Origin: Minisyncoccia bacterium
GTDB lineage: Bacteria > Patescibacteriota > Minisyncoccia > Phycocordibacterales > UBA918
NCBI GenBank assembly: GCA_041742075.1
Contig: JBGSJJ010000010.1
Coordinates: 165 to 64,164, forward strand
DNA length: 64,000 bases
Direction: 5' to 3'
Shown: positions 3,397 to 58,278 of the stretch, piece after piece
Layout of the letters: every line of letters starts with the position of its first letter
How positions within the stretch are numbered: the first letter of the stretch is position 1
Notes under the pieces: model-generated
Told to the model about the DNA's origin: nothing
The model's database searches: none
What the model saw: only the letters and a program-made list of their open reading frames with translations
Made by a program: the position numbers and the translations under genes

Positions 3397-3430
3397 TTAT
3401 AAAAAGCGGGGCGGCCAAAGGCCGCCCCGC
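3397..3430 (-). terminator. Terminator of the mscS gene: gcggggcggcc/ggccgccccgc stem with a T-run on the minus strand
   Basis: GC-rich 11-bp stem 3406-3416 / 3420-3430. The plus strand shows ttataaaaa 3397-3405. Confidence 0.7.
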
Positions 3431-3440
3431 TCTTACCCTC

Positions 3441-4352
3441 CTACTCACCACTCACGCGCCTACCAGCCTGTATACCTGTGATTTCACTTCTATGCTCTGC
3501 TTCATGAGCAAGAACTTCGCTATAGATAACCTTTACAATTATGTCTTCTGCCTTAACGGTGTAGTGTTCAAGCGTTACCTCAAGCTGACAGTCAGTATGC
3601 CACTGCTTCATAGTGAGTACCCGTAGAAATATTTTTTCCTTAGAGACAAGCGAGCCACAACTCGTGAGAAGTGCTTCCTTAAGTCTCTCTTCGAGCGAAG
3701 ACAACGGATGCATCGCTTCGTTCGGGAGAGAAAACGGAATAATGAGACAACGACTTTTTGTCTTACTGTAATTAATTACTTCACTGCCAATGAAGCGGGT
3801 GTTTGGAATGAAAAGCAAATTACCATCATCAGTCTTGATGGTGGTCGCCCTGAAAGAAATATTTATGATGGTACCGCGCGCTGTCTCCCCCACCTTCACG
3901 TAGTTTCCAATCCGATAATCCGGCGAAAACATAAGCCGGAAGCTATCCAAATAGTTTGAGATGTGATCTCTAAAGATAAGAACCAGGGCAACTGCTACCA
4001 AGCTAATTGAAGTCAAAAACTCTTGGAATGCTATGTCGAGTATGACAAGTGCACCGATAAATGTCACAAACACCGTCACGAGTTTTTCAAGTGAATCAGT
4101 GCCTAAAATAAAGTTGTCCCGGTCGCTGATAGCAAGCTTATTGCGGGTTCGGTACGAACTCACCATAAATGACCGTATGACACCGAGTATGAGTGCGGCA
4201 GACAGGTAGAGTTGGACTACCTCCCAAAACTCAATTGGTAAGTAGTTACCGAGTAGGTTGAAAGCCATAGCAAAGGTAACAGCTACGAGTATCAGTAACT
4301 GCACAAACAGCTTAAACTTTCGACGCGGACTGATGAGTAAAAAAGAATTCAT
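3441..4352 (-). CDS. mscS: Small-conductance mechanosensitive channel, MscS family
   Basis: N-terminal TM helices. Conserved MscS beta-domain motif GNYVKVGETARGTIINISFRATTIKTDDGNLLFIPNTRF. Confidence 0.85.
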   Translation of the reverse strand: MNSFLLISPRRKFKLFVQLLILVAVTFAMAFNLLGNYLPIEFWEVVQLYLSAALILGVIRSFMVSSYRTRNKLAISDRDNFILGTDSLEKLVTVFVTFIGALVILDIAFQEFLTSISLVAVALVLIFRDHISNYLDSFRLMFSPDYRIGNYVKVGETARGTIINISFRATTIKTDDGNLLFIPNTRFIGSEVINYSKTKSRCLIIPFSLPNEAMHPLSSLEERLKEALLTSCGSLVSKEKIFLRVLTMKQWHTDCQLEVTLEHYTVKAEDIIVKVIYSEVLAHEAEHRSEITGIQAGRRVSGE

Positions 4353-4494: not shown

Positions 4495-5712
4495 ATGGAA
4501 GACACTACTGGTTATGTCGTCAGACTGCCCGATGGCAAGTATGTCACTATCCACCACACACCGCAGCATTGGTGGAATGAACCAAGACACGTCGGCTACA
4601 TTGCTCCCGAGTTGCTGGCTCCAGACCTTGACCAGCCGCGACAGGAAATGGTTGAAAGCGAGCTCGAAGAACTTCAGATCGCTATAGCTGCAGCCGGAGT
4701 GCGTGAACCCATCACGGTAACTTTGCGTCAGTGCGCACCGTGGATTCGCGTCGAACCACAGTACGAAAACCGACCGTTCGCAATCGTGAGCGGCCACCGA
4801 CGCCACCTGAGCGCAACGAGAGCTGGCGTCCCGGCGGTACCGGTTAGAGTCGTACTCTACGACAACGAGACGCAACACCGCGACGATGCGGTGTTGCTCA
4901 ATGGGCAACGTCACGACATGTCGCCTATGGATGAAGCCCGGGACATCAAGCGCCGACTGACGCTCGGTGAAAGACCAGAAGCTATTGCGCGCTCATACGG
5001 CAAGAACAACGTTTCGTGGGTGCATAGCCGAAACGCGCTCAACAACCTAGCTCCAGCACTCCAAGCACTGCTCAACCCAACGCTAACTCGAGAGAAGCAG
5101 CTGCCGGTTGTTGTGGCTATCAGGCTCGGCAGCATCAAGAAGCCCTCCCCCGCCAGCATCGCTGAATTCTGCGACGAGTACGACCTCACCCAGCCCAGAG
5201 AGCTCGGTGACACCGAAGAAGAGCTGGCACACACCATGCAACTCCTCATGTACGAAGTGATACAGGGACAGAAGATGACGGCCATCGTCGCGTGCCATTT
5301 CGTCGAGAATACTCGGCGAGCTACCGGGTCTGGAGCTCGTGCGACTCACAAGAGTGAGAAGTACGAGCCTCGCAAGCGTGTGGAGGCACTCCTCAACTAC
5401 CTCAAGTCAATATCCCAAGGACTGCCAACGACGTGGAGCGGCGCTGAGTTTACTCGTATCTGCGCTGGGCAGACGAGACTACAAATGGGTGAACACCTCG
5501 CTCTCGCCCTCGAGGCAGGAAAAAGCCTCGTCGAGATCATCGAGCACCTCGAAACAATCGAACGGAGCAAGCCTCACTTCGACGAGAGAATCACGGCGTT
5601 GCTGACTGCACCGGTTGCACCTGTACAGAAGTTCACACCGCGCGCAAGAACTATGGCTGACATGCCTCCCGAGGAGGTGGCAGCTATCAAGGCTCGCCTC
5701 GGCCTCAGGTAA
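4495..5712 (+). CDS. ParB/Srx-like nuclease N-terminal domain protein (405 aa), GC-rich foreign-looking gene
   Basis: FAIVSGHRRHLSATRAGVPAVPVRVV matches the ParB N-domain GxRR box. SD ggagga sits before the ATG. About 60% GC versus about 40% in the flanks. Confidence 0.75.
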   Translation: MEDTTGYVVRLPDGKYVTIHHTPQHWWNEPRHVGYIAPELLAPDLDQPRQEMVESELEELQIAIAAAGVREPITVTLRQCAPWIRVEPQYENRPFAIVSGHRRHLSATRAGVPAVPVRVVLYDNETQHRDDAVLLNGQRHDMSPMDEARDIKRRLTLGERPEAIARSYGKNNVSWVHSRNALNNLAPALQALLNPTLTREKQLPVVVAIRLGSIKKPSPASIAEFCDEYDLTQPRELGDTEEELAHTMQLLMYEVIQGQKMTAIVACHFVENTRRATGSGARATHKSEKYEPRKRVEALLNYLKSISQGLPTTWSGAEFTRICAGQTRLQMGEHLALALEAGKSLVEIIEHLETIERSKPHFDERITALLTAPVAPVQKFTPRARTMADMPPEEVAAIKARLGLR

Positions 5713-5726
5713 GCGGCACAAAGCAA

Positions 5727-5765
5727 GGCGTGGACGACTCATAGTCGTCCACGCCGCTTTTTATT
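5727..5765 (+). terminator. Rho-independent terminator: ggcgtggacgact/agtcgtccacgcc stem plus gcttttta
   Basis: 13-bp perfect stem 5727-5755 with a T-run 5758-5765. Confidence 0.8.
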
Positions 5766-5776
5766 TATACTTGTTT

Positions 5777-5963
5777 AACGACGAGGTAGTTCGTCTTTAA
5801 CGCCGATTTTATTGAATGAAGAAATGAGCGCCAGCGATTATTCTGAATTTATGTCCTGATTTTTTCTTCCCAGAGAAAATCACTGGACCAAGACAAGTAA
5901 AGCTATATTAATGAATCCAATAGGGTTACCGACGCGGTAGTTCGTCTTTAACCCCGATTTTAT
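5777..5963. repeat. Imperfect direct repeat (34 nt, 2 mismatches; 5779-5812 and 5930-5963) that duplicates the last 11 codons plus stop of the HTH-regulator gene
   Basis: Both copies translate on the minus strand to KIGVKDELPRR-stop. All differences are synonymous third-position changes (GGG/GGC, CCG/CCT, CGG/CGT). Confidence 0.7.
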
Positions 5964-6606
5964 CTGTCAAAATCTGATGTGGGTAGTCAAACACATCACG
6001 CGTGAGTTTGTCGTACATACCAACTCGGTACTTCAAGTCCTCTGACTCCATCGCCGAATAACGGATTTCTACTCCAAGCTCTGACTCAAGGGAACGTATT
6101 GCAGTTTCGACTTTTGATTGTGATAGTTTTTTTGTAGCGAGGAGTAAATCAAGCCGTTGGTCAAAGTCACGTAAGAAAATTCCTGACACCACCACAAAAT
6201 CAACTTTACCGAGCTTGCGTAAATGGTTCATCACGGTCTTCCCATTTATCGGCGCAGTTTCAAACAGGAATGTTTGAAGGGCCTGGAGTTCTGGAAAACT
6301 TTTATCAAGCGCGTAGCCTTGGGCTTTTCGCTTTTTTTCGGTGTCTGGCTCAGTGATGATGATTTGCTTCTTCTTAATCACGCCGGCTCGTTCGAGCGCA
6401 TTCATCTCCGTCCGGGCAGTTCGGCGCACCAACTTTGCCCGACGAGAAATTTCGTCAAAGGTGAAATCTTTTGATGGGTTAAAGAGAAAAAACCGCAGAA
6501 GTTTAACTCGGGCTTGGCTTCCAAACAGGATTGTAAGCGGATCGGCTACCATACAAGAAATAGTGTCTGGATTATAGCATGCAGAGGTTTTCCCCAGTCT
6601 GGACAC
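5926..6606 (-). CDS. Winged-helix (MarR/ArsR-like) transcriptional regulator with an uncharacterised C-terminal domain
   Basis: FTFDEISRRAKLVRRTARTEMNALERAGVIKK is a typical wHTH. The true start may be the internal Met (MVADPL...). Confidence 0.55.
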   Translation of the reverse strand: MSRLGKTSACYNPDTISCMVADPLTILFGSQARVKLLRFFLFNPSKDFTFDEISRRAKLVRRTARTEMNALERAGVIKKKQIIITEPDTEKKRKAQGYALDKSFPELQALQTFLFETAPINGKTVMNHLRKLGKVDFVVVSGIFLRDFDQRLDLLLATKKLSQSKVETAIRSLESELGVEIRYSAMESEDLKYRVGMYDKLTRDVFDYPHQILTDKIGVKDELPRR

Positions 6607-7598: not shown

Positions 7599-7760
7599 AA
7601 GAATTTATTTAAGCTTCTGAATATATAATTTTCTAAAATTTATAAATTAGCAGATTGCCCGAGATGCGCGAAGCACAAAGAAATTTTTTGCGAGTCGTAT
7701 AAAAATACGGTGAGAAAAAATTTCTGTAGTGCGACAAAGCAGATTGGGTAATATGATAAT

Positions 7761-8303
7761 TTATGCCTTTTTTTCTGCCACCGCGTTGAGTGCAAGTACC
7801 AATCCCTGAATCGGTGAGTTGATTACATTGACGAACATGCCTCGGAGTACTGGAAGAGCTGGAATAGACGCGATTTCGGTCATTTCTGCCTGGTTCTTGT
7901 ATACACCCTGAAACACACCACCAACAATCGCAATATTTTCCTTGTACTTTGCACTAAACTCCTTCACGTTTTGTGCGGGAGCAATTGCGTCAGTACTGTA
8001 GGCTACAGCGATTTCACCATCAAGCGTTGGAATAGTTCCAGTGAACTTTCCATCAAATGCTCGAGCGATAAGTGTCTTCTTTGCTACGAAGTAGCCAACA
8101 CCTTCTGAACGCAACTTAGCGCGCATGCCAGTATTGTCCTTACCTTTCATTCCCTTGAACTTTACAAACACGATTGAGTCAGACTCATTCTTGATTGTTT
8201 CTAGCTTAGCGAGAATATCGGTCTTTTTTGCTTTTGTAATTGCCACAGTAAATTTTTGTTTTCGTGATAAATAACAGGCCCAAAGTTGTGTCAGAACTGA
8301 CAC
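7761..8303 (-). CDS. rplJ: 50S ribosomal protein L10. The N-terminus is uncertain; an alternative GTG start near 8246 gives VAITKAKK...
   Basis: L10-like sequence placed upstream of rplL. The first 19 residues of the annotated ORF are atypical. A 10-bp perfect hairpin (8283-8306) overlaps the annotated ATG. Confidence 0.85.
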   Translation of the reverse strand: MSVLTQLWACYLSRKQKFTVAITKAKKTDILAKLETIKNESDSIVFVKFKGMKGKDNTGMRAKLRSEGVGYFVAKKTLIARAFDGKFTGTIPTLDGEIAVAYSTDAIAPAQNVKEFSAKYKENIAIVGGVFQGVYKNQAEMTEIASIPALPVLRGMFVNVINSPIQGLVLALNAVAEKKA

Positions 8304-8440
8304 AACGTTAGGCTTCGACCTTCCACTATCAATAAGAGATATATGGACCTCGGCGGGTATACCTACGGCTGTAGGTGGATTACGGTAGAGCGACCCTCTA
8401 CCACCAGCTGTCTTGAGCCTGCGTACGCGCTACTATACCA
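8304..8440 (-). promoter_or_regulatory. Putative structured rplJ leader (L10 autoregulatory region)
   Basis: A long untranslated GC-richer segment upstream of rplJ with several stem possibilities. The call is by position only. Confidence 0.25.
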
Positions 8441-13569: not shown

Positions 13570-14340
13570 AAAACCCTTTACAAAAGGCCACCCTTCGCTA
13601 GATTGATAACTTTAGGTTTGAAAGCTAGCCATTCAAATAATTCATTTTGCATACTTGCTTCAGTTACAAAATATTCTGGAAACAACGATGTGTTTAAAAT
13701 CACTTGTTCTGGGCGTGCGCTACCAAAATAATGAGCCAAGCTAGAGAATCGGTAATCCTTCGCATATAAATACGCTTTTTCAAAATCAGCTATTCCCTGC
13801 TCTTTCCAATCTGATTGAATTAATTTCACTGGATTGAGATGGATGTAGGCGTATAAGTACTTTAAATATTGGTCAGTATCAGCCCACTCAGCTTTAAATT
13901 TTCCCTCAAACAAAGTACCTGACCGTAGATATTTTTTATTAAAATACATTGAATAACTTGTGCACAGTTTATTCATATACTTTGTGACTCCTCCCTCAAT
14001 AACAGGAGTCAATAATAAGTGAAAATGATTTGGCATGAGGCAGTACGCTCCAATAGCAACCAACTCGTCTCCTCGTTCATACTCATATACATTTATTTCG
14101 TCTCTTTTAATTTCACGAAGATCTATAGAATTTTTAGAATTTGTTAGATAGAGTAAGTTTACAAAACGTTCATAATCTTTTGCATCTTGAAAGATTGTTC
14201 TTTTATCTACACCACGATTATAAACGTGATAGAACTCATTATGAGAAAAGCTGAGCTTTCGTGTGGTCATTAATTTATTTTAGCATGACTACAAAGGGCC
14301 ACCCTTCGCAAAGTTGCGAAGGGTGGCCCTTTGTTAATCT
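13570..14340 (-). mobile_element. Putative IS200-like unit: transposase gene bounded by a 42-nt perfect palindrome (14291-14332, caaagggccacccttcgcaa/ttgcgaagggtggccctttg) and a partial copy of the same motif (13583-13598)
   Basis: Subterminal hairpins are characteristic of IS200/IS605 ends. The unit size, about 770 bp, fits. Confidence 0.45.
13578..14270 (-). CDS. IS200/IS605-family Y1 HUH transposase / RAYT-like protein (230 aa)
   Basis: The N-terminal YHVYNRG motif, the HUH motif PNHFHLLL and a downstream Tyr-containing region fit PF01797-type transposases. Confidence 0.7.
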   Translation of the reverse strand: MTTRKLSFSHNEFYHVYNRGVDKRTIFQDAKDYERFVNLLYLTNSKNSIDLREIKRDEINVYEYERGDELVAIGAYCLMPNHFHLLLTPVIEGGVTKYMNKLCTSYSMYFNKKYLRSGTLFEGKFKAEWADTDQYLKYLYAYIHLNPVKLIQSDWKEQGIADFEKAYLYAKDYRFSSLAHYFGSARPEQVILNTSLFPEYFVTEASMQNELFEWLAFKPKVINLAKGGLL

Positions 14341-23710: not shown

Positions 23711-23751
23711 CTCTTTATAAAAGGGCCAGCTTTCGTTCATACGAATGCTGG
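23711..23751 (+). terminator. Hairpin aaagggccagc...gctggcccttt after efp
   Basis: 9-bp stem with an internal sub-stem and a short T-run. Confidence 0.5.
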
Positions 23752-23772
23752 CCCTTTGTAATCTTGAACCGT

Positions 23773-29088: not shown

Positions 29089-29116
29089 ATCAAACCTTTC
29101 ATTCGAATGAAAGGTT
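29089..29116. repeat. Perfect palindrome caaacctttcattcgaatgaaaggtttg (copy 1)
   Basis: The 24-nt core aacctttcattcgaatgaaaggtt recurs identically at 29541-29568. Confidence 0.8.
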
Positions 29117-29131
29117 TGATATTGTTTTAAT

Positions 29132-29539
29132 ATGGTTCGTCTCAACAAAAATTTATTATCTACAAATCAACTTGAGGAATTATTTATACAGTTCACACAT
29201 GTTGCGCACACTAAGTCAGCTCTAGAAACTGGTTTGATTTTACAAGAAGTCCTAGGAAAAGAAGAGCGTGTCATGGTTGCAAAGCGTATTGCGATAATAG
29301 TCCTCATTGCTGAAGGAAGATCTCTCTACAATATTGCGAATGTTCTCAAAGTCAGTCCAGCTACAGCTGAAAAAATCAAAAAGAATTTAGATTCTGGAAG
29401 TTATGATTCTATTCTAAAGAAATTAGGTAAATCTAAAAAAAGCTACTTCGAAATACTAAACACCATTGACTCCATTCTTCATCTTGGGGGAATACTACCT
29501 CACTACAATGGTCTAGAACGCTACAAAGGAGTCCGCTAA
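29132..29539 (+). CDS. TrpR/YerC-like helix-turn-helix protein (135 aa)
   Basis: RIAIIVLIAEGRSLYNIANVLKVSPATAEKIKKNL HTH. Lower GC than the neighbours. Confidence 0.55.
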   Translation: MVRLNKNLLSTNQLEELFIQFTHVAHTKSALETGLILQEVLGKEERVMVAKRIAIIVLIAEGRSLYNIANVLKVSPATAEKIKKNLDSGSYDSILKKLGKSKKSYFEILNTIDSILHLGGILPHYNGLERYKGVR

Positions 29540-29540
29540 A

Positions 29541-29568
29541 ACCTTTCATTCGAATGAAAGGTTTTGGT
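29541..29568. repeat. Perfect palindrome aaacctttcattcgaatgaaaggttt (copy 2)
   Basis: Identical core to 29089-29116; lies immediately after the stop of the HTH gene. Confidence 0.8.
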
Positions 29569-31559: not shown

Positions 31560-31721
31560 AATTTGATTTAAGCACATTGTACTATAGCAATAACACCGCC
31601 TTAGAGACAGGGCGAATTGCGAGACAGCTTCAATATAGCCCCAGCGCTCTTTATTTCATTCAACTCTAGCATATTTTTGCGTGGGTGGTATCGTAAATGA
31701 TGAAGGAGAAAGGAGGAGTTC

Positions 31722-58115: not shown

Positions 58116-58278
58116 AGGCTTCTATAATACCAAGAAGAGTGGGGTTCGACATAACAAAAGCGGCGGCGAGCGGGGACCGTGAGTCGCGTCTCACAATCCC
58201 GGCTCGCCGCCGCTTCCCTCTAACTTACCTAGTATACCGTACTTTAAACAACCACATATGCCTGGGGTGTATAAATGA

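Follow-up and report, generated by a model that had tools for sequence, protein, structure and literature searches.

Genes and features of the locus

The window analysed here, a stretch of DNA 64,000 nucleotides long, is an ordinary segment of a Patescibacteria chromosome, with genes for RecA, FtsK, SSB, ribonucleotide reductase, tRNA synthetases and ribosomal proteins. The site of interest lies at the end of a gene for a helix-turn-helix (HTH) regulator, which gives weak matches to the HTH families of Pfam and is a winged-helix, Lrp-like protein going by the source names. The gene, for which 1293 homologues have been found, is conserved beside rplL-rplJ in Patescibacteria, and the order DUF1360-L10-L12-HTH-orf258, with a variable segment between the last two, holds across 40 species loci. 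In the window the HTH open reading frame runs on the minus strand from 5926 to 6552 counted from an ATG, or to 6606 from a GTG. The features of the site are as follows; E is the element described in the next section.

5727..5755, no strand assigned: bidirectional intrinsic terminator common to the ParB and HTH genes; native flank, conserved in the related locus L164
5775..5812, minus strand: orphan gene end (copy 1), with KIGVKDELPRR and TAA after 2 nt left from the codon before them; one side adjoins the 5' end of E without a gap, and the other appears to run on into the native spacer and terminator, judging from the empty-site locus L164
5813..5889, plus strand: element E, ~77 nt, TGAATGA...CTGGAC(C); folding strand antisense to HTH
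5813..5851, plus strand: hairpin 1 of E, with outer UGAAU/AUUUA, apparent tandem G.A pairs, AGAA/UUCU, an inner 2-bp helix and a GUA loop
5853..5888, plus strand: hairpin 2 of E, in which a GUCC/GGAC base is followed by a conserved CU bulge of 2 nt in the 3' strand and a 10-11 bp helix
5890..5925, no strand assigned: tail between E and the functional gene end, 36 nt, with no counterpart in the empty site
5926..5963, minus strand: functional gene end (copy 2), comprising the stop and the 11 codons before it, joined to the body of the HTH gene
5926..6552, minus strand: HTH regulator gene, with the insertion point inside an Asp codon, 11 codons before the stop

On the plus strand of the window the layout thus reads native terminator, copy 1, E, 36-nt foreign tail, copy 2 and gene body. 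The two gene ends form a direct repeat of 38 nt, identical at 35 of the 38 positions, with a start-to-start spacing of 151 nt and 113 nt of intervening DNA. This pair ranks top among the direct repeats of the window; with up to 3 mismatches allowed, the 38-mer occurs at these two sites only, and matches were seen in 0 of 100 shuffles. Read on the minus strand, both copies give KIGVKDELPRR-stop. Copy 2 terminates the HTH frame as ...DKIGVKDELPRR and stop, while copy 1 reads ..NKIGVKDELPRR and stop and is an orphan, since an in-frame stop lies 9 codons upstream of its K. The differences between copy 1 and copy 2 (GGG/GGC, CCG/CCT and CGG/CGT) are in all three cases synonymous changes of the third position. 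A preliminary description of this DNA had reported the last 11 codons and stop as duplicated with only synonymous changes, and had taken copy 2 for the real end of the HTH gene; both statements have been confirmed, the limits of the repeat being slightly wider than first given.

Mis-joined contigs can create short repeats, and two of the retrieved contigs (L162 and L163) have their ends at 5749, within the terminator, which makes it reasonable to ask whether an assembly error or a chimera produced the duplicated end. Against this, the sequence from one copy through the spacer to the other is the same, at 100% identity, in three independent Logan assemblies built from other runs, so that the duplication is not an assembly artefact, and an independent metagenome-assembled genome, L008, has the homologous structure; the chance of an artefact is negligible. 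The repeated gene end is real.

A two-hairpin element between the repeats

The spacer between the repeats holds one discrete element of ~77 nt that forms two hairpins, here called E (plus strand). The copy in the window scores 78 bits with nhmmer and 93.9 bits (E-value 1.2e-16) with covariance model R1, and is the only good copy in the window. A weak, divergent relative of E lies at 31573-31665 on the minus strand, just upstream of metG (covariance model 21 bits, E-value 0.03), and retains the hairpin 1 motif TGAATGAAATAAAGAGCG..CTATATTGAAG.

The core of the spacer recurs in unrelated places (L003, L004, L006, L008 and L018). Retrieval of further copies, by a metagenome scan with an 18-nt core pattern followed by nhmmer on the fetched genome and metagenome loci, gave ~75 full-length copies in Patescibacteria. 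Their boundaries are sharp: copies 94-97% identical to each other sit amid wholly unrelated flanks, which marks E as a discrete unit of ~77 nt. It is intergenic at 66 of 72 sites, and its distribution is patchy, with 13 covariance-model hits in 5 of the 46 HTH-centred loci and several copies in some of them. Some copies are joined or clustered. Head-to-tail dimers with 0-1 nt between the units occur at L091 400-561 and L062 1371-1507, the second unit of the latter being identical to the first except that it is truncated at its 3' end, and L008 10040-10550 contains at least 4 copies or fragments of E, in both orientations, interleaved with a 40-nt repeat, CCTAGGACAAGGGGGCGGATTCGGAACCAAGTTCGCAATA.

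The fold of E has been worked out from an alignment (A3) of 56 distinct copies, using RNAalifold and pair counts. It comprises two hairpins with 25 base pairs; 98.3% of the cells are paired and 14 of the 25 pairs are compensatory. Double-change cells number 146 as against 34 in shuffles (0/500), and the signal is destroyed by sliding the partners. In hairpin 1, the pairs 12-37, 13-36 and 14-35 each show 3-4 pair types; in hairpin 2, covariation is seen at 50-77 (CG in 40 sequences, UA in 15) and 56-71 (UA in 28, GC in 21, CG in 3). Pair 6-43 of hairpin 1 is a G.U in 35 of the 56 sequences, and hairpin 2 has U.G at 58-70 (46/56) and 59-69 (22/56). These pairs are strand-specific, since they would be A.C mismatches on the opposite strand, so the folding strand is the plus strand of the window, antisense to HTH. 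Conservation is biased at the 18 alignment columns that were fixed by the retrieval pattern, though the covarying partners are free of this. Pairing of the hairpin 1 loop with the 3' strand of hairpin 2, as a pseudoknot, was considered and set aside, the apparent complementarity being explained by the inner helix, with no independent covariation seen in A3. The fold of E is supported by covariation.

No Rfam match to E was obtained at E-values up to 10 for the window region and up to 1 for eight other loci, and E has accordingly been rejected as a member of a known Rfam family, be it a ribozyme, an omega/HEARO-type transposon guide RNA, a leader or an sRNA. Nor is there a conserved ORF among the copies. 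On its antisense strand, the L008 spacer can be read as a small ORF (MSKAIIENLCPDFF..); in the window this frame is interrupted by a frameshift or stop, and its start and frame are inconsistent elsewhere; the apparent conservation of its peptide arises because the hairpin arms are conserved. E is absent from viral contigs: six pattern matches in IMG/VR are chance and none of them fits the covariance model, which disposes of a viral origin. When the 668 ORFs within 2.5 kb of 75 copies of E were clustered, no recurrent recombinase, transposase or reverse transcriptase was detected, so that it is the distribution of E that argues for its mobility. A literature search found no description of such an element. 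E is thus a well-supported structured nucleic-acid motif without an Rfam family, and the family, widespread in the ultra-small Patescibacteria, has apparently not been described before.

Targets and flank repeats of the E copies

Significant flank repeats accompany E at ~15 of 73 distinct sites and are not detectable at ~58. In the top 13 of the flank-repeat ranking, the gap between the upstream repeat copy and the 5' end of E is zero, while the downstream copy lies a short stretch after E, as part of an intact target. The length of the flank repeat, or orphan, varies from about 10 to 46 nt. Targets include the 3' ends of protein genes on the opposite strand (HTH in the window and L008, a dockerin-like protein in L104 and a vWA-like protein in L003), the 5' parts of tRNAs on the same strand (L125, the L049 group, L101, L158 and L073/L064) and, in L140, a 5' UTR with its ribosome-binding site; the orphan is antisense for the protein-gene targets and sense for the tRNA targets.

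The 6-8 nt directly 3' of E match the continuation of the target past the insertion point (CAGAGTG, TAGAGCA and CGCTAC, for example). The general layout can be written u-D-E-g-u'-D-g-G, where D is the repeated target segment, G the intact target past the insertion point, g the first 6-8 nt of G, and u and u' the less conserved sequence that precedes each D. In other words, a target unit of 41-75 nt is present in tandem duplicate, the first copy being split by E at a point that coincides exactly with the 5' end of the element. In the window the remnant of the target is weak (local score 8), though the E-proximal bases of the 36-nt tail may, by analogy with the other sites, derive in degenerate form from the target sequence past the insertion point. 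This tail shows no similarity to the native spacer or to the DNA downstream of HTH in 28 relatives, and since it has no counterpart in the empty site it is foreign.

Two different elements are found on one target in L140, L049 and L101. In L049 (~4790-4930) and L101 (~13640-13740), the tRNA targeted by E also has another kind of small element nested after its nucleotide 18, which starts with a hairpin right at the junction (GGATGAATTGAGG..CCTCAATTCATCC) and likewise comes with a duplicated tRNA 5' part.

Filled and empty sites, and the ParB neighbour

Exact-protein look-ups with the HTH regulator returned only contigs that are 100% identical to the window; the next relative, P0002 (L164/L165), has 88% identity in the HTH protein, and there the site is empty. 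In L164, 18 nt separate the HTH stop from the terminator hairpin known from the window, beyond which a ParB homologue lies in convergent orientation. This is exactly the order of the DNA after the orphan in the window, which differs from L164 by a 151-nt insertion. The empty-site junction expected for the window locus is ...TTTTGACAG/ATAAAATCGG..TAAACAAGTAT, where the slash marks the insertion point. The site is filled in the window and L008; it is empty in P0002/L164, P0004/L167, P0006/L168 and the other 38 species loci. L008, which is Kaiserbacteria-like, has the same arrangement with a repeat of its own (RIGVADELPRR, 44 nt, 2 mismatches, spacing 150) and a spacer homologous to that of the window, and it lacks ParB. 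L008 and the window share the insertion point to the nucleotide, within the Asp codon, and in each the orphan matches the gene end of its own genome.

The two filled lineages do not come out as sisters in the HTH tree, where empty ones interleave with them. Their E copies are 76% identical and rank only 47th and 32nd of 55 with respect to each other, each being closer to copies elsewhere. This suggests either repeated hits at one nucleotide or a single gain followed by several precise losses.

The preliminary description had explained the repeats as the attL and attR of a decayed or minimal integrase-type island, with a GC-rich ParB-nuclease gene as the likely surviving cargo. Such islands do typically show direct repeats of a gene end that differ at synonymous positions, the ParB gene has a GC content of 57% in a window of 45%, and it is extremely divergent, with 30% identity to its counterpart in L164 (3683-4627), although the HTH proteins are 88% identical and the shared terminator is conserved. 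However, the ParB gene lies at 4495-5712, beyond the interval bounded by the repeats (5775-5963); L164 already has the terminator and ParB beside the HTH stop at its empty site, so that ParB is a native neighbour and not cargo; its homologues flank HTH in L001 and L005 without any repeat, while in L008 the repeat and E occur in the absence of ParB. The interval between the two copies is just 113 nt long, with an intact member of a sharply bounded ~77-nt family in place of a decayed island, and a Pfam scan of the ORFs from 1 to 22 kb found no integrase within 15 kb. The relatives of ParB are all GC-rich too (54-57% versus 45-49%), and the gene itself may be hypervariable or often replaced. The island model is already contradicted, and we give it very little credence. 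The broader proposal, that an inserted element came with a replacement 3' end, has fared better in part: there is an insert beside a spare gene end, at a site filled in some relatives and empty in others, but it is not an att island of the integrase type.

It had also been proposed that copy 1 was the gene end from elsewhere. That assignment is probably to be reversed: because copy 1 runs on into the native terminator and ParB, it is probably the displaced native end, copy 2 having arrived with the insert, although the two readings are formally symmetric.

Coding constraint on both copies

In the four protein-gene cases, the differences between orphan and functional copy are synonymous third-position changes in 14 of 14 instances, one of them being TAG versus TAA (L104). 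Under random substitution the joint probability of this is ~6e-10; if the orphan alone were decaying neutrally, ~40% of the differences would be expected to be synonymous, which by our calculation gives a probability of roughly 3e-6. The non-coding part of the duplicated unit is unalignable, whereas the coding part is 92% identical. Both copies have therefore evolved as working gene ends, and the earlier suggestion that copy 1 was once a functional end under constraint is borne out. The pattern fits the view that one copy came from the working gene of a different lineage.

These data bear on a simpler explanation, according to which the locus is an old local tandem duplication to which mobility need not be ascribed, its copies having been kept alike by gene conversion and its spacer being merely conserved intergenic DNA. 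The nearly equal spacing of the two copies in L008 and the window (150 and 151) and the match of each orphan to the gene end of its own genome are what such a duplication would give. It does not account for a spacer that belongs to a family dispersed over unrelated loci, for the interleaving of filled and empty lineages, or for E copies in the window and L008 that are not each other's closest relatives; and neither neutral decay of a target-site duplication nor intragenomic gene conversion predicts synonymous differences only, both leading one to expect mostly non-synonymous ones, or a non-coding part that has lost all alignability beside a well-preserved coding part. We consider this explanation improbable. 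The preliminary description had held that the same two copies, if found in relatives without ParB and without variability, would speak for an old duplication; L008 does have both copies without ParB, yet the site is variable, and the duplication is not an old, fixed one.

Possible function for the host

In four species E stands at an identical place, directly before the start codon of rpsS, and in L003 it is placed at the ATG of another gene. Such positions raise the possibility of a host function rather than selfish mobility. In L043 (~7690-7800), L068 (~8320-8440) and L080 (~3400-3520), a conserved non-coding block (GGGAATCTC..TAAGGCCGGCCGTTACCTGTCTTT..CCCACCACCGC) is seen upstream of rpsS; E follows it and abuts the rpsS ATG, and a Shine-Dalgarno sequence is absent.

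E might accordingly be a structured RNA that benefits the host, as an antisense or guide-like regulator or as a processing or stability element, with the orphan kept for its complementarity or identity to the target and mobility being secondary. The strong covariation, the apparent tandem G.A motifs, the strand-specific G.U pairs, the position at start codons and the way in which the orphan tracks the gene end of its own genome are all in keeping with this. The orphan, however, has no fixed length, most copies of E have none, and it is antisense to protein-gene targets but sense to tRNA targets; moreover, selection for pairing would leave unexplained why a stop codon and reading frame are kept, as in the TAG versus TAA of L104. 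On the folding strand of the window, the orphan and E are immediately preceded by a strong terminator, and no sigma-70-like promoter was found within or beside E, manual inspection being likewise unconvincing. As this terminator lies beyond the orphan copy, the HTH mRNA must cross the antisense strand of E and the orphan. On balance, a primary role as a host RNA seems unlikely, though it is the alternative that we take most seriously.

Comparison with known systems

Mobile inserts that bring a replacement gene end and displace the native one as an orphan are a known phenomenon. Integrase islands, which target the 3' ends of tRNA, tmRNA or protein genes and bring a replacement for the end, share with the E locus the direct repeat of a gene end, an orphan beside native DNA and a functional copy joined to foreign DNA, both copies that look like working gene ends, and sites that are filled or empty among relatives. 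The insert with E, in contrast, is 151 nt long, encodes nothing and has no integrase nearby; E has many targets, including the 5' parts of tRNAs and a 5' UTR; and the 6-8 nt of target continuation after E are not predicted by a simple att-core model. Homing-endonuclease or mobile ORF insertions in organelle and phage genes, such as that in Allomyces atp6, which carry a foreign C-terminal coding copy with the displaced native end downstream, resemble it in the replacement of a gene end by a foreign one, the native orphan and the orthologue-like differences, but they encode an endonuclease and use one site, whereas E encodes nothing and has many targets.

Like MITEs, REP/REPIN-RAYT systems and PATEs, E is small, multi-copy, mostly intergenic and patchy, its strand-specific hairpins would suit a single-stranded intermediate, and a gene for a Y1 HUH transposase is present in the genome. 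It differs from MITEs in that its ends (TGAATGA... and ...CTGGACC) are not complementary, so that there are no terminal inverted repeats, and in lacking a short target duplication of fixed length, its flank repeats being 13 to 46 nt or absent and the duplicated unit 41-75 nt. PATEs, derived from IS200/IS605, and REP/REPIN elements insert 3' of a conserved tetra- or pentanucleotide and do not duplicate the target, whereas the columns before E are unconserved and give no target motif, and ~15 sites have long flank repeats. The hairpins of E, although strand-specific as in PATEs and REP/REPIN, are dissimilar to each other and unrelated to the palindrome of the Y1 gene, and gene-preserving duplications of 41-75 nt are not a feature of any of these families.

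The Y1 HUH transposase-like ORF just mentioned lies 8 kb away, at 13578-14270 on the minus strand (230 aa, motif NHFHLL, Pfam Y1_Tnp E-value 2.9e-8). A GC-rich palindrome, GCGAAGGGTGGCCCTTTGT, flanks the ORF (13577-13605 and 14284-14337), with a half copy inside its last codons; another half palindrome is found at 23742-23766. A homologue with 60% identity in L067 is flanked by the same palindrome, and the arrangement looks like that of RAYT and REP. With its own, unrelated REP-like palindrome in both the window and L067, the Y1 protein gives no sign of a link to E and was rejected as its partner. Other repeats in the window include a perfect 26-nt palindrome, AAACCTTTCATTCGAATGAAAGGTTT, at 29092-29117 and 29539-29564, bracketing a small ORF (29132-29539), a 37-nt inverted repeat at 359-395 and 590-626, with arms 84% complementary and 194 nt apart, and a 58-nt GC-rich near-palindrome at 58158-58215.

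A diversity-generating retroelement would also have a gene end repeated a short distance downstream, and the phylum is rich in such elements. Here, however, the repeat is 38 nt long and the third-position changes are G to C and G to T; with differences that are not adenine-specific and no reverse transcriptase in the neighbouring ORFs, this candidate was rejected. SINE-like, target-primed retroposons have in common with E a precise 5' end at which a structured region starts, flank repeats and 3' sequence of variable length, and a non-autonomous nature. E differs from them in having no associated reverse transcriptase in the available flanks and no A-rich or partner-derived 3' tail, and in interrupting the first copy of the duplicate instead of lying between the two. 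No SINE-like retroposon is known to be established in bacteria.

The vehicle of E thus lacks at least some of the defining features of each of these: MITEs, REP/REPIN, PATEs, diversity-generating retroelements and integrase islands. What sets it apart is the combination of a protein-less two-hairpin unit of ~77 nt, many targets, long gene-sparing duplications, an exact 5' junction and a 3' remnant of the target. That E belongs to a class of its own is a genuine, though unproven, possibility.

How the element may have arrived

E is discrete, multi-copy and patchy, its site in HTH is filled or empty according to lineage, its 5' flank repeats are gapless, and both copies of the gene end are under coding constraint. 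Taken together, these observations make it likely that E is a small, non-autonomous mobile element that entered the HTH gene 11 codons short of its stop, together with a duplicate gene end by which the gene was kept intact. For its movement we infer the following outline. One copy of the gene end would have come from a different lineage: a unit bearing E would pass among related lineages and integrate when the homologous gene ends recombine, formally through a single crossover between the intact target and a circle or fragment made up of E and its flanks or, alternatively, through homologous recombination that takes up a filled allele; RecA is among the proteins that the window encodes. The recipient's own gene end would then be left as the orphan, which would thereby be refreshed with the formerly functional end. 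The recognised entity would be the single-stranded form of the non-autonomous E, whether RNA or DNA, and insertions into a needed target would survive only if an intact copy of the target unit came along.

A fuller reading, which we put forward tentatively and hold to be possible rather than probable, is that E exemplifies a new class in which a protein-less unit of ~77 nt moves as RNA or single-stranded DNA, enters essential targets (gene ends, tRNAs and 5' UTRs) without destroying them by bringing along or generating a 41-75 nt copy of the target, re-homes to the same nucleotide in related lineages by homology and is mobilised by an enzyme acting in trans.

Patescibacteria have tiny genomes with little room for selfish DNA. 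E, which encodes no protein, is present in many of their lineages, within gene ends and tRNA genes that stay intact because it comes with a spare copy of the target. For annotation, this means that 'duplicated gene ends' and partial copies of tRNAs here can be explained by E, with no need for islands. If it is truly mobile, it would provide a new model for the way in which minimal elements invade essential targets and, because orphan and functional ends differ as orthologues do, a natural marker of DNA exchange between uncultivated lineages.
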